Shown here in pieces: positions 466-57,734 of a DNA stretch of 64,000 bases. The notes beneath the pieces were generated by a model. That model made no database searches. It saw nothing but the letters and a program-made list of their open reading frames with translations, and had not been told where the DNA came from. The position numbers and the translations under genes were made by a program. Position 1 is the stretch's first letter, and each line of letters begins with the position of its first letter. This stretch comes from Acidobacteriota bacterium (lineage in GTDB: Bacteria; Acidobacteriota; UBA6911; RPQK01; JAJDTT01): positions 2,688,001-2,752,000 of the forward strand of contig OZ253580.1 of assembly GCA_965263035.1 (NCBI GenBank). Direction: 5' to 3'.

Positions 466-646
466 GGCACCCCCGCACTGCTGGACCTCAGAACAAGGTT
501 GAAGACACGCAGACTCACTTTCTCTGCTTCGCGTTCTCCCAATCCTCACTCCTTGTTTCTCACTCCTTTCCGCCATGTTACCCTTTTCCGGCCCTCCCGT
601 CGGTCCCAGTCTCGGGGGGACGGAACCCGGACTTTTCGAGGACATC

Positions 647-2248
647 ATGCGGAACAGAATTCTCAACTCGATCGGAATCGCCGTCGCAATCGTTCTTCTG
701 ATCGACGTGGCCTCCCCGGGCCAGGCCGGGGCGTCGTCCCACGCCGAACGGATCAAGGGAGGCCGGGAACTCCACGACCCCGGGCTGCATCTCTTCCTGG
801 ACGACGAAGAGGTCCAGGATCGTCCCGGATTCACCCGGGTGGTTCAGAATCCGACCCGGATCCGCCGCGATCCGGTGTTGGTGCCCGACCGCCCCTGGGA
901 AGGACACGCGGTGCAGCTCTGGGGCTCGGTCCTCTACGACCGGGAGGAGAAGCTCTTCAAGATGTGGTACTTCTCCGCCAACACCCCCATGTACCGGCGC
1001 CTGGGGAGGGGATACCTCATCTGCTATGCCACTTCCCAGGATGGAATCAACTGGGAGAAACCCGACCTGGGTCTGGTGCCGGTCGACGGCTCGTCCGCCA
1101 ACAACGTCGTTTACCCCACGCCGGGAATGCCGGCCTCGTGGGGCATCGATCCCTGGGGGGTGGTCAAGGATCCTGATGAGCCCGATCCGGCACGGCGTTA
1201 CAAGATGGGCATGTATCAGCAACGCCCCACCGCCGCCGAGTCGGATCTGGAGCGCCCCGGTATGAATCGGGAACAGAAGAACCGGGCACGGAAGGTCTTG
1301 CTGCAGGCCATACGGGACCGGCACGGAATGTACGCCGCGTTCTCTCCCGACGGGATCCGTTGGACTCCGGGGGAGGAGATTCTGGTCCCCCGGGGCGGCG
1401 ACGCCGGAGCGCTGGTCTATGATCCCCTGGGCCGGCGCTACGTGGCCACGACCCGGCGGTACGGGACCATCATGGATCACTTCGTCGTGGGCTGGAAAGG
1501 GTATCGCCGCGTGATCGCCCTCTCCAGCAGCGAGGACTTCGTCCATTGGACCCCCCTGAAGACGATCCTCAAGCCGGACGATCTGGACCATCCCCGGGAC
1601 CAGATGTACGTCATGACCCCCTTCGCCTACGGGAACCAGTACATCGGGTTCATCGGCATGCTCCACTCCTCCACCGAGCTGGGGCCGACTCAACTGGCGA
1701 CCGCCCGCGATCTGGCCCACTGGCGGCGCGTCGGGCGCCGTCAGGAGTTCCTGCCGGTGGGTGCTCCAGGTAGCTGGGACGGGGCTTGGGCCACGCCCTC
1801 CGGGAACCCGCCGGTCCTGAAGGGAAACCAGCTCTATCTCTGGTATTCGGGCCGTCCCCAGGCCCATGGCACTTCCGGAATGTGGAAGAGCTCCATCGGC
1901 GTCCTGACCCTGCGCAAGGACGGTTTCGTAGCGTTGCGCAGCGGGATCCGCGGCGGTGACGTCATGACCGAGCCGGTGACGGTGACCGGTCCCAAGTTGG
2001 TCCTCAACGCCTACTCGTTCTTTGGCAGCGTCCGGATCCGAGTCATCCACGACGGCGCGGTGGCACCCGGTTATTCCTTCGAGGAATGCAACGCCCTGGA
2101 AAAGGGGGACGAGACCGGCTTTCCCCTCACTTGGGGGCCGGACCGGCAGGATCTCTCCCCCTTTGCAGGCAAGAGAATCCGCCTTCATATCCAGGCCGAC
2201 AACGCCACCAGCCTCTTCTCCTACCGCTTCGCCGCAGCGGCCGACTGA
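647..2248 (+). CDS. Secreted beta-propeller glycoside-hydrolase-like protein (GH32/GH43-like, uncharacterised)
   Basis: Signal peptide; LFLDD, PDRPWEG, Asp-box-like SQDGINW/SPDGIRW/SEDFVHW, LRKDGF motifs. Confidence 0.7.
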   Translation: MRNRILNSIGIAVAIVLLIDVASPGQAGASSHAERIKGGRELHDPGLHLFLDDEEVQDRPGFTRVVQNPTRIRRDPVLVPDRPWEGHAVQLWGSVLYDREEKLFKMWYFSANTPMYRRLGRGYLICYATSQDGINWEKPDLGLVPVDGSSANNVVYPTPGMPASWGIDPWGVVKDPDEPDPARRYKMGMYQQRPTAAESDLERPGMNREQKNRARKVLLQAIRDRHGMYAAFSPDGIRWTPGEEILVPRGGDAGALVYDPLGRRYVATTRRYGTIMDHFVVGWKGYRRVIALSSSEDFVHWTPLKTILKPDDLDHPRDQMYVMTPFAYGNQYIGFIGMLHSSTELGPTQLATARDLAHWRRVGRRQEFLPVGAPGSWDGAWATPSGNPPVLKGNQLYLWYSGRPQAHGTSGMWKSSIGVLTLRKDGFVALRSGIRGGDVMTEPVTVTGPKLVLNAYSFFGSVRIRVIHDGAVAPGYSFEECNALEKGDETGFPLTWGPDRQDLSPFAGKRIRLHIQADNATSLFSYRFAAAAD

Positions 2249-11630: not shown

Positions 11631-12632
11631 CTACAGGAAGTCCGACGCGCAGGGGTAACCGGGAAGCGGCTCCGCCTGGAGGACCGCTCGGACCACGGCT
11701 CTGGCGGTGACGTGGGCCGCAAGAGCCCCCACCAATCCCAGGTCCTGCCCTGGAACCGATTCGGTGGAAAGGGCGAACAGGGTATCCCCGTCCGCCGGCA
11801 TGTGGACGGGACGGATGGTCCGGGCCAACCCGTCGTGGGCCATCTGAGCGATCTTGGTCAGGCCCGCCTTGTCGAACCCGGCGTTGGTGGCGACCACGCC
11901 CAAGGTCGTGTTCTCGCCCTCGCCCGGGCGCCAGGCTGGAAGTTCCCGTTCCTTCAGGACCGTCATGGTGTCGGCGAATCCGCGCCCGCCCGCGCCGCGG
12001 ACTCCCGCCAGGATTCTGCCCGTTTCCGGATCGATGACGTCGCCGACGGCATTGACCGCTACCAGAGCCGCCACCACCACAGGTCCGACCTGCACGGCCG
12101 CCGAACCCAGGCCCCCCTTCATGGCGCGTTCGTGACCCAGTATCTTGCCCAAGGTGGCCCCGGCTCCCACGCCGGCGTTGCCTTCGGGGACCGGCCCCGT
12201 CCCGGCGTCTCGGCAGGCCCGGTGTCCCAATTCGGGACCCGGGCGGATCGAGGCGTCTCCCAGCGCCAAATCGAAGAGAATGGCCGACGGCACGATGGGG
12301 ACTCTGGCCACCGACGTCCGATAGCCCACCCCCCGTTCCTCCAGGAAACGGACCACTCCGGAAGCCGCGTCCAGACCGAAAGCGCTGCCGCCGGAGAGCA
12401 CCAGGGCGTGGATGCGCTTCACCGAACGCACCGGGTCCAGCAGGGCGGTTTCACGGGTGCCGGGAGCGGAGCCGCGAATGTCCACTCCGGCCATCACTTC
12501 CCGTTCCGGCAGGACGACGGTGACCCCCGTGGGCCGCCGGGGGTCGACGGCATGCCCGACCCGTATGCCTACGAGGTCGGTCAGGCCGCCCTCGTAGGCG
12601 GCGGATCCTGATGGATACGTTTCGCTGCTCAT
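11631..12632 (-). CDS. P1 family (S58, DmpA-like) peptidase
   Basis: GIRVGH, GSAPGTRET, LSGGSAFGL, NTTLGVVATNA, DGDTLF. Confidence 0.9.
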   Translation of the reverse strand: MSSETYPSGSAAYEGGLTDLVGIRVGHAVDPRRPTGVTVVLPEREVMAGVDIRGSAPGTRETALLDPVRSVKRIHALVLSGGSAFGLDAASGVVRFLEERGVGYRTSVARVPIVPSAILFDLALGDASIRPGPELGHRACRDAGTGPVPEGNAGVGAGATLGKILGHERAMKGGLGSAAVQVGPVVVAALVAVNAVGDVIDPETGRILAGVRGAGGRGFADTMTVLKERELPAWRPGEGENTTLGVVATNAGFDKAGLTKIAQMAHDGLARTIRPVHMPADGDTLFALSTESVPGQDLGLVGALAAHVTARAVVRAVLQAEPLPGYPCASDFL

Positions 12633-12655
12633 GCCCGAAGTGGGTGAATGCGGGT

Positions 12656-13228
12656 CCTGAAAAGCAGGGCTGTAAGCCGAATTCTGTACCCTGGCCGCAA
12701 GGCCGGGGCGGCGATCATTCCTCTAGGGGCCGGGTTGCCCCGGCCCTCGGGCGGCCTACCCGCTCCGCCTCCGCCCTGCCCGGGGGCCGGCGAATGAGCC
12801 GGGCCAACTCGTACGGAGCCTATTTGGCCTTGCACCGCGTGGGGTTTACCGTGCCTTCGATGTCACCATCAAAGCGGTGGGCTCTTACCCCACCATTTCA
12901 CCCTTACCCGCAGTCCCGACGACGGAACCGAAGGCGGTATCTTTTCTGTGGCACTTTCCGTAGGGTTACCCCCCCTTCCCGTTAGGAAGCACGCTGCCCT
13001 GAGGTGTTCGGACTTTCCTCCGCCCGGCGTTAGCAGCCCGTGGCAAAAGTCGTCACGGCATTCGACCGTCCCTGCATCGTGCGCGGACTGCGTTGCGACT
13101 CGGTCACATACTCCCGGTATGCTCCCTCATCGTGCCTGGTCCGGCGGGCGCAGAACCGGTCTCGGTGCTCGCGGGACTTTCACCACGGACTGCTAGCCGG
13201 AAGGCGATCGCCCACCCTGCTTCTCAGG
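12656..13228 (-). ncRNA. rnpB: RNase P RNA (type A), about 573 nt including a 161-bp MITE in P3
   Basis: GAGGAAAGTCCG, AGTGCCACAGAAA, GGTGAAATGG, GGTAAACCCC, ACAGAATTCGGCTTA; 15-bp P1 (CCTGAGAAGCAGGGT/GCCCTGCTTTTCAGG), P2 GGCGATCG/TGATCGCC. Confidence 0.95.
13033..13193 (+). mobile_element. 161-bp palindromic MITE, copy 1 (inside rnpB)
   Basis: TIR GCAGCCCGTGGCAAAAGTC / GACTTTCACCACGGACTGC, flanked by TA on both sides. Confidence 0.9.
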
Positions 13229-13236
13229 CCGACGAC

Positions 13237-13245
13237 ATTCTATCA
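13237..13245 (-). promoter_or_regulatory. Extended -10 promoter of rnpB
   Basis: TGATAGAAT about 8 nt upstream of the P1 5' strand. Confidence 0.6.
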
Positions 13246-13325
13246 CCGGAAGCTCAGGTGGAACCGATTTCACGCGGTCGCCCCGACGTGCCCGCCGGTA
13301 CATATCCCGCGAGACGAGCAAGCGC

Positions 13326-14213
13326 TTACCGAGAGCGAATCAGGCCCCGGCCCACGGCGCCCGCTTCCAGTCCGATGAGCTCGCCGTAGACCCGGCCGAA
13401 CTTGACCTGGGCCTCGAACTTGACGGGAACTCGAAGCGGGTCCCGGGAGTACCAGACCTGCAGCGTCCTCCCCTGGGAGAGGATTCCCCCCTCGACTCGG
13501 AGCCGAACGGTGTCGAAAGCCCCGATCCGGAGTTCGACTTTCTCCCGCTCCTCCACCCGGACCAGAAGCTCCTTGAACTTGCCGCGGTCGGCCAGGTGCG
13601 CACGGTACCGGCTCGCGTCCTCCAGCCGCTGGAGCCTGACCACGTAGACGGCCGAGATCAGGTCGGTGACCGGCCCCGGAATCCCATCTGAGGTGCGGTT
13701 GTGAAGCTCCCGCGGCGGATCCCTGGACACATCCAGATCGCGGTAGAGCGCGATGTTCCTGCGGTAGTCGAAGACGGAGAGCAGATCGCGCCTGCGTTTC
13801 CCTTCGCGGTGCTTTCGGAAGATCCGATAGGAATGGAAATTCCGGGCGTCGACAATGGACTCGAAACGATTTCGCACCGAAATCTTGGCGACTTTCGCCA
13901 GCCTGCCTGCCGAGACGGCCTCCATGGTAATGGTCCAGGCCGGCCTCTTGCGATACCGGGAACGCTTCACGGTGAAGGCCAACTCTCCGGCCTTGAAAGC
14001 CGGAGAGGCGAACAGGGGCTTCCAGTTGACCTCGTATCGCAGCTTCTCTCCGGCCTGGAAGGGAGCTCTGTAGGGAGTGCTTCCATCCAGTAGAGGTCGC
14101 GCCGTCTCGGACCCGGCCGGAAGCGAGAAACAAAAAAAAGCGGTCGTGAGTGGGACGAGAACGGCCCGCAAACGGCTTACCCACTGCCAGGGGGCGAGCA
14201 TTCCGCGCCTCAT
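13326..14213 (-). CDS. DUF3108-like exported protein
   Basis: Signal peptide; PFQAGEKLRYEVNW..AGEL; VWYSRD..RVPVK. Confidence 0.65.
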   Translation of the reverse strand: MRRGMLAPWQWVSRLRAVLVPLTTAFFCFSLPAGSETARPLLDGSTPYRAPFQAGEKLRYEVNWKPLFASPAFKAGELAFTVKRSRYRKRPAWTITMEAVSAGRLAKVAKISVRNRFESIVDARNFHSYRIFRKHREGKRRRDLLSVFDYRRNIALYRDLDVSRDPPRELHNRTSDGIPGPVTDLISAVYVVRLQRLEDASRYRAHLADRGKFKELLVRVEEREKVELRIGAFDTVRLRVEGGILSQGRTLQVWYSRDPLRVPVKFEAQVKFGRVYGELIGLEAGAVGRGLIRSR

Positions 14214-57565: not shown

Positions 57566-57573
57566 GGACGCTA

Positions 57574-57734
57574 GCAGTCCGTGGTGAAAGTCCCACGCAG
57601 CACCGAGACCGGGGCTGCGCCCGCCGGACAAGGCGCTCTGAGGGAGCATACTGGGAGTATGTGACCGAGGAGCAACGCAGTCCGCCGGGATGCAGACCCG
57701 GTCGAATGCCGTGATGACTTTTGCCACGGGCTGC
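57574..57734 (-). mobile_element. 161-bp MITE copy 4
   Basis: Same length and TIRs as copy 1, flanked by TA, inserted at the stop codon of the cytochrome c gene. Confidence 0.9.

Follow-up and report, generated by a model that had tools for sequence, protein, structure and literature searches.

The DNA analysed here, referred to as the window, is a 64,000-nucleotide (nt) stretch of an Acidobacteriota genome (assembly GCA_965263035.1, contig OZ253580.1, positions 2,688,001 to 2,752,000), and our subject is its rnpB, the gene for the RNase P RNA, which carries a miniature inverted-repeat transposable element (MITE) in the apical loop of helix P3. The genome, G000 in what follows, is one contig of 6,198,070 bp with 97% completeness, and its single match to the Rfam model of bacterial class A RNase P RNA (RF00010) lies on the minus strand of the window. 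With its insert, the type A gene is about 572 nt long and runs from ~13228 to 12656, boundaries that are predicted from the Rfam match, the alignment with eight congeners and the computed fold. We refer to the inserted element as MITE-1 and to G000 with the eight congeners (G001 to G008) as the genus set.

Read along the RNA strand, the gene is preceded by an extended -10-like motif, TGATAGAAT (13245..13237, minus strand), about 8 nt upstream of P1 and identical in eight of the nine genus genomes, G006 having TGGTAGAAT. The original prediction of an intact extended -10 promoter holds as far as this conserved motif goes; a simple sigma-70 consensus scan of 12500..13400 gave no promoter-like site, and the assignment comes from reading the motif. 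Terminator-like sites were not found in the same interval either. The 5' strands of P1, P2 and P3 follow as CCUGAGAAGCAGGGUGGGCGAUCGCCUUCCGG (13228..13197), a segment common to all nine genomes apart from one G/A position; in the window the insert parts it from the remainder of the gene. Next come a left target duplication, CTAG (13196..13193), recognized from the 4-bp duplication established below for the family; the 159-bp element (13192..13034) with terminal inverted repeats (TIRs) CAGTCCGTGGTGAAAGTC (13192-13175) and GACTTTTGCCACGGGCTG (13051-13034); and a right target duplication, CTAA (13033..13030), with one mismatch to the left one. According to the Rfam alignment, the remainder of the gene (13029..12656) holds the 3' strand of P3, P4 and the catalytic core, the specificity domain, and the 3' strands of P1 and P2.

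P1, P2 and a covaried P4 are intact around the insert, as had been predicted. The closing helix P1 (13228-13215 with 12669-12656) has 14 pairs, one of them G.U, forms together with P2 in the minimum-energy fold and is kept in all nine genus genomes. The conserved P4 and core nucleotides GAGGAAAGUCCG ... ACAGAAUUCGGCUUA are present in the Rfam alignment, in which P4 reads CCGAA/UUCGG against the consensus CCGGg/CCCGG, a double compensatory change common to the genus.

The expectation that annotation tools would truncate the gene was correct. Infernal with the Rfam model places rnpB at 13078..12657 (262.9 bits, E 1.3e-84, threshold 100 bits) and covers model positions 1-367, but it does so by using a false P1 inside the insert. 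The gene start falls on GAUGCAGGGACGGUCGAAUGCC (13078..13057), a look-alike of the P1/P2 5' strand within the element, and the window copy of CCUGAGAAGCAGGGUGGGCGAUCGCCUUCCGG is missed. The score is about 30 bits below those of the congeners (289.3-297.9 bits, n=8), and noncanonical pairs are flagged in P1 and P3, because the true 5' strand sits 150 nt upstream of Infernal's start and the look-alike was used in its place. Since the tool misplaced the start in this way, other MITE-rich genomes may carry misannotated rnpB genes. The look-alike is present in all MITE-1 copies and might in principle act as a competitor of the true P1 when the RNA folds.

The MITE-1 family and the fold of its rnpB copy

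The insert is a MITE lying exactly in the P3 loop, as originally predicted: it has TIRs, it makes target duplications for which empty sites can be found, and it belongs to a set of many dispersed, short, noncoding copies. A blastn search of the insert against its own genome gave 188 high-scoring segment pairs (HSPs), of which 160 reach 150 nt or more, and a census anchored on both TIRs counted 156 full copies, split 77 to 79 between the plus and minus strands. These are about 159 bp long, with TIRs of 18 nt and a median identity of 93.7% to the family consensus, and the family was found in all nine genus genomes. The rnpB copy is 97.5% identical to the consensus, with four differences, and ranks as the fourth closest of the 156; judged by this closeness, it looks young or slowly evolving.

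Two details of the original prediction had to be changed. The element measures 159 bp rather than 161 bp, and the duplication is not a 2-bp TA but 4 bp of the form NTAN, here CTAG/CTAA. In 76 of the 156 copies the 4-mers on the two sides match exactly, and agreement per position is 121-133 of 156 within the duplication versus 55 of 156 at the next base outwards. TTAA, CTAG and ATAT are the commonest duplications; a left CTAG is paired with CTAG in seven copies, with CTAT in six, with CTAA in three, with CCAG in three and with CTGG in two. Empty sites were sought for 72 unique MITE-1 copies from sister-genome loci, and the orthologous site could be identified in G000 for 24 of them. Eighteen were empty, six were filled and none had a remnant. 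The empty sites keep a single copy of the duplication, 4 nt in 17 cases and 5 nt in one, and in 11 it is identical to the duplication of the relative.

Elements of the IS5/IS1182 type are known from ISfinder to make 4-bp duplications of the YTAR/CTAG type, which the TA-centered duplication of MITE-1 resembles. Four longer elements in G000 share MITE-1-like TIRs and the 4-bp duplication, one of 1,072 bp (G000:C1 151695-152766) and three of 754 bp (2099107-2099860, 2918875-2919628 and 5669960-5670713), and they hold frameshifted or deleted transposase remnants whose match to DDE_Tnp_1_6 (PF13751) is weak (23.4 bits, E 7.8e-5, below the 25.1 cut-off). Membership in the IS5/IS1182 type is therefore tentative, the match being below the cut-off and no intact transposase with MITE-1 TIRs having been found in G000; neither TIR pairing nor tblastn revealed an intact autonomous partner in that genome. 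With no intact transposase of that kind encoded, MITE-1 may now be immobile in G000.

Further copies deserve mention as observations in their own right. A second MITE-1 lies in the window at 57572-57734, is 89% identical to the rnpB copy and has the same CTAG/CTAA duplication; a TIR-like end at ~55272, 2.4 kb upstream, pairs with it in the TIR scan. Elsewhere, copies abut or nest with one another or with the second family described below (MITE-2), including tandem pairs that share a duplication (G000:C1 2762843-2763168, 4517023-4517348 and 704382-704576). The single 23S rRNA gene of G000, the one other large RNA looked at, has a normal length of 2,969 nt.

That the TIRs pair with each other and extend P3 agrees with the computed structure. 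The segment 13204..13022 folds as one hairpin made of six P3 pairs, a 2-nt AC bulge, a run of 21 contiguous pairs and a paired interior, the run consisting of three bases of each duplication plus the 18-nt TIRs and including three G.U pairs. Its energy is -101.2 kcal/mol (z = -6.16), and none of 200 shuffled sequences folded as well. The minimum-energy fold of the whole 576-nt stretch retains P1, P2 and P3, with the insert on top. In the orientation found in rnpB, the RNA of the family is more stable than its antisense in 155 of 156 copies (medians, -87.4 versus -75.7 kcal/mol) because the mismatches between the arms are G.U on that strand. Only two orientations are possible, so finding the better-folding one in rnpB does not argue for selection.

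P3 alleles and a second insert in sister species

Three forms of P3 occur within this one acidobacterial genus: short, MITE filled, and a remnant that makes the helix 9 nt longer. Related genomes with the empty site, which the original prediction had proposed to look for, do exist, and the rnpB genes of the congeners are 404-413 nt long, that of G005 (below) being longer. The short form is CCGGC-AGAC-GCCGG in G001, G003 and G005 and has an AGCC loop in G004 and G008. The remnant form reads CCGG-CTAG-CA-T-TG-CTAA-CGCCGG in G006 and G007 and CCGG-CTAG-CAG-TG-CTGA-CGCCGG in G002 (loci L059, L063 and L065). In these alleles both duplications and two or three bases of each element end are kept and 154-155 of the 159 bp are gone. 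The two remnant forms are equal in length and differ at two positions, and judging from this comparison both may descend from one deletion. In its computed fold the remnant lengthens P3 by 4 bp and keeps the AC bulge of the filled allele. The form of G006 and G007 was present at a depth of 2,439 in the metatranscriptome X4, where 13035 is joined to 13191 with one A between, and the AGAC-loop form was seen in X10. A change in P3 length is tolerated in the genus, as three congeners have a P3 that is 9 nt longer and one of these forms is found in the RNA of X4.

A tree of the ~9.8 kb upstream of rnpB, in which all six inner forks are well supported, places ((G006,G007),(G000,(G002,G003))) beside (G005,(G001,(G004,G008))). 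The filled and remnant alleles are confined to the first of these clades, inside which G003 nests with its ancestral-looking AGAC loop, so that lineage sorting, recombination or repeated events are needed to explain the distribution. Either the element entered once and was later deleted, with lineage sorting or recombination shaping the distribution, or the same CTAR site was hit more than once. The shared CTAG/CTAA mismatch was considered as proof of a single insertion, and this argument is weakened by the recurrence in the family of a left CTAG with a right CTAN. An rpoB tree groups G002 with G003 and leaves the rest as a polytomy; the row of G006 is bad, its gene being fragmentary and set apart from the other genus rows by an inner branch of 1.71, and we do not rely on that tree. 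In G003 (L084, G003:C1:1252000-1271900), an insertion of ~2.1 kb with an open reading frame for a 577-amino-acid transposase-like protein ends ~110 nt upstream of the rnpB promoter motif and replaces the 3' end of a neighboring gene that is seen in the other eight genomes.

The rnpB of G005, the only one detected in that genome (L062, G005:C1:2710691-2712256, nt 501-1066, minus strand; RF00010 match, 566 nt, 291 bits), carries an unrelated MITE of 160 bp, MITE-2, at the tip of P17. This element has the TIR GGAGTCTGCGCGG and a 2-bp duplication, mostly TA, and Infernal bridges it by a 187-nt local end. Pieces of MITE-2 are present in all nine genus genomes, with ~160 full copies in G000 (163 long HSPs, 159 by TIR anchoring), and over ~100 nt some copies elsewhere in G005 are 100% identical to the one in rnpB. 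It is predicted to fold as a hairpin on P17 (-111.6 kcal/mol). On this sequence evidence, the sister species G005 appears to tolerate a different MITE in P17 of its rnpB.

The positions of the two inserts at helix tips could have reflected targeting of such tips by the transposases. We looked for at least five contiguous pairs between the flanks outside the duplication and found them in none of 156 MITE-1 and none of 159 MITE-2 copies, against 1.2% and 1.6% of shuffled flanks. With no preference for hairpin tips in either family, survivorship is the best reading of where the rnpB inserts lie: those that landed in other parts of the ribozyme would have been lost.

Use of the interrupted gene

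The original prediction held that this is still a functional RNase P RNA gene, unless a second, uninterrupted rnpB were present and this copy silent. An RF00010 search of the whole one-contig genome found no second rnpB. The gene for the protein subunit, rnpA, is present (PF00825, 94 bits) as an open frame without stops. The PF08745 (PIN_5) profile, which we take to be the family that covers the protein-only HARP RNase P, has no match in G000 and does match the four control genomes. Outside the insert, rnpB is 94.1-96.6% identical to the genes of the congeners, and of 407 shared columns three hold substitutions private to it, versus zero to five in the eight congeners. Two of these, both C>U, replace G-C by G.U pairs in stems assigned to P12 and P14 from the Rfam alignment, and the third turns a GCGA tetraloop into GCAA, keeping the GNRA type. 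The core of the gene does not appear to be decaying, and the private substitutions look neutral with regard to structure. The prediction of a working gene is thus supported by the sole rnpB, the intact rnpA, the lack of a HARP match and the undecayed core; that the RNA is catalytically active and that its mature form keeps the hairpin is what we infer from these data.

It is probable that this sole rnpB works as an RNase P RNA of ~572 nt with the MITE hairpin passively tolerated on P3. According to this reading, the 159-bp nonautonomous DNA transposon would have entered a CTAR site in the apical loop of P3, and transcription would begin at the normal promoter and pass through the element. The inverted repeats and the interior would then pair into one long hairpin, which would continue the P3 stack in a direction away from the catalytic core. 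The ~572-nt RNA should still assemble with RnpA and cleave pre-tRNA, because P1, P2, P4 and the conserved core nucleotides are unchanged.

Contigs from RNA libraries bear on whether the transcript runs through the element. Of 20 listed runs, nine are recorded as RNA, and the contigs of four runs were compared with the locus, with 31 nt across a junction required for bridging. Contigs of high depth in the metatranscriptome X3 (records 17 and 21) cover the rnpB core with zero mismatches. Record 21, a 92-nt contig with a depth of 963 (12969-13060), passes without mismatch from the core through the 3' strand of P3 and CTAA into the element. In X1, a 130-nt contig (record 6, 12969-13098) bridges the 3' junction with at least 64 nt on each side and no mismatch, and a 120-nt contig (record 8, 13069-13188) matches the private bases of the rnpB copy. 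None of X1, X3 and X4 has any depth over the protein-coding DNA on either side (12600-12647 and 13224 onwards), a pattern that fits RNA rather than contaminating DNA. Spanning of both junctions, which the original prediction had called for, was therefore seen for the 3' junction, in the mismatch-free X1 contig, and not for the 5' one (13196/13192), which none of the listed contigs bridges. Cover of 13197-13228 is close to zero in X1 and X3, whereas the remnant-type RNA in X4 is covered there; by the rule applied, an uncovered stretch does not count as a finding, and contig breaks at repeats combined with low cover of the 5' end could explain the gap.

Several observations weigh against a full-length RNA with a tolerated hairpin, the unbridged 5' junction being the first. 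X1, the source of the bridging contig, is only guessed to be RNA, and record 21 of X3 enters the element by just 26-27 nt, under the 31-nt rule. Within the element, most of the X3 depth has the consensus bases at 13133, 13138, 13154 and 13156 and not those of the rnpB copy, so that this depth may stem from other copies or strains. The 21-bp stem is a plausible substrate for RNase III, which is encoded in G000 (131 bits). The four changes in the rnpB copy weaken its hairpin (-83.6 kcal/mol versus -95.1 kcal/mol for the consensus; stability rank, 105 of 156), for which reason the copy does not appear in these computed folds to be tuned for hairpin stability and gives no sign of selection for structure. 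Finally, only ~5 nt of the element is left in the rnpB of three congeners, and no remnant was found at the 24 other orthologous MITE-1 sites. This difference suggests, from genome comparison, that trimming may be favored specifically in rnpB and that the full hairpin may carry a cost and be mildly harmful.

A broader proposal is that MITE insertion and partial deletion are a live, recurrent source of change in the helix lengths of RNase P RNA and that the ~572-nt transcript may also be cut by RNase III into a split ribozyme; we regard this combination as possible but doubtful. Clipping taken by itself would have the transcript cut by RNase III or another endonuclease into a two-piece ribozyme, with pieces of ~40-60 nt (5') and ~380-400 nt (3') that pairing in P1, P2 and the P3 stem would keep together. 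The 21 contiguous pairs stacked on P3 and the encoded RNase III make this conceivable, and there are precedents, as a natural fragmented bacterial RNase P RNA is documented in PMC9945441, which also cites the reconstitution of activity from halves of the Escherichia coli P RNA. We nevertheless consider clipping unlikely. The two X1 contigs (12969-13098 and 13069-13188) are continuous and free of mismatches from the core to 4 nt before the left end of the element, meaning that at least some molecules keep the hairpin, and no joint or pile-up of molecule ends was seen in the element, although contigs cannot show RNA ends anyway.

That the interrupted gene is crippled or dead, with the 5' maturation of tRNA left to something else, is very improbable. 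The insert does part the 5' strands of P1-P3 from the core by 163 nt, and the deletion of nearly all of the element in three relatives could be taken as a sign of damage, but there is no second rnpB or HARP match to take over, rnpA is intact, the promoter motif is conserved, the core has substitutions in the same number and pattern as those of the congeners, and RNA-library contigs of high depth (X3 records 17 and 21) match it without a mismatch. An assembly artifact, in which one of ~156 near-identical copies was misplaced inside rnpB, is scarcely credible: exact-pattern scans of Joint Genome Institute (JGI) metagenome contigs gave 0 matches to the 5' junction, which the listed contigs also fail to bridge, but the genome is a single contig, the 3' junction is crossed with zero mismatches in separate runs and studies (X1, and X3 for its 26-27 nt), X1 record 8 carries the private bases of the rnpB copy over 13069-13188, and the stubs and both duplications at the identical position in three congeners require a real insertion at that site.

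Precedents, significance and the wider class

Repeats inside the rnpB of cyanobacteria were reportedly described by Vioque in 1997. The likeness to our case is that genome-wide repeats occupy a peripheral helix in the RNase P RNA gene. These short tandem repeats (STRRs) are of a heptamer type and are not transposons bounded by TIRs and target duplications, and we know of no series of empty, filled and remnant alleles described for them.

The closest RNase P RNA for comparison is that of Thermodesulfatator indicus, in which a large expansion of P12 is excised in vivo to give a fragmented ribozyme (PMC9945441). That segment is ~70 nt long, its excision is shown, and it has no reported mobile-element origin. 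The segment in the window sits in P3, measures 159 nt without the duplication, can be shown to be a MITE and may or may not be processed. The intervening sequences (IVSs) of 23S rRNA, for example, in Coxiella, are likewise selfish, hairpin-forming inserts at a helix tip of an essential structured RNA and are removed by RNase III, leaving the rRNA fragmented (PMC4990558); removal is demonstrated there, whereas processing of the rnpB insert is only a possibility. In Rickettsia felis, 728 Rickettsia palindromic elements (RPEs) are counted (PMC1166351), 85 of them in open reading frames and three in RNA genes, so that small palindromic mobile repeats invade essential genes, RNA genes included, and are tolerated there too. 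The element family and the host are different.

Palindromic repeats in RNA genes and an excised expansion segment in RNase P RNA were thus already known. What appears to be new is a cut-and-paste-type MITE in a sole rnpB, in P3, the occurrence of empty, filled and trimmed alleles side by side among sister species, and a second, independent MITE in P17 in the same genus. No report of a MITE in rnpB or RNase P RNA, in Acidobacteriota or elsewhere, was found in a literature search that had most subscription journals and supplements outside its scope.

In the accretion model, RNase P RNA grew by stepwise insertion of expansion segments (PMC12974513), and such steps are deduced there from structure only. 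Here the insertion, the empty site and the trimmed remnant are all visible in sister species, which offers a dated mechanism, at the level of DNA, by which peripheral helices are added to a universally conserved ribozyme and cut back. The tips of P3 and P17 are marked as sites that take ~160 extra nt in vivo and may be useful for engineering tags into RNase P RNA, and the genus provides a natural test of the fate of long hairpins in an essential RNA, retention or excision.

The occurrence of long rnpB genes was surveyed at the level of the class in 137 genomes, 120 of which have an RF00010 match, a tally that includes G016 with its normal rnpB of 384 nt. Full-model matches are mostly 364-420 nt long. 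The longest are those of G005 (566 nt), G045 (549 nt), G048 (497 nt) and G043 (483 nt), and seven more measure 444-456 nt. G048, G045 and G043 (L092, L091 and L093) belong to other families of the class; their P12 and P16/17 carry extra hairpins of ~100 nt, and P3 is longer as well in G048 and G043. In G045, the two rnpB inserts share their ends (GGCAAGUUAAC...), and pieces of 30-40 nt from them recur on many contigs of G044, G045 and G046. These sequence matches hint at repeats in the rnpB of more than one genus.

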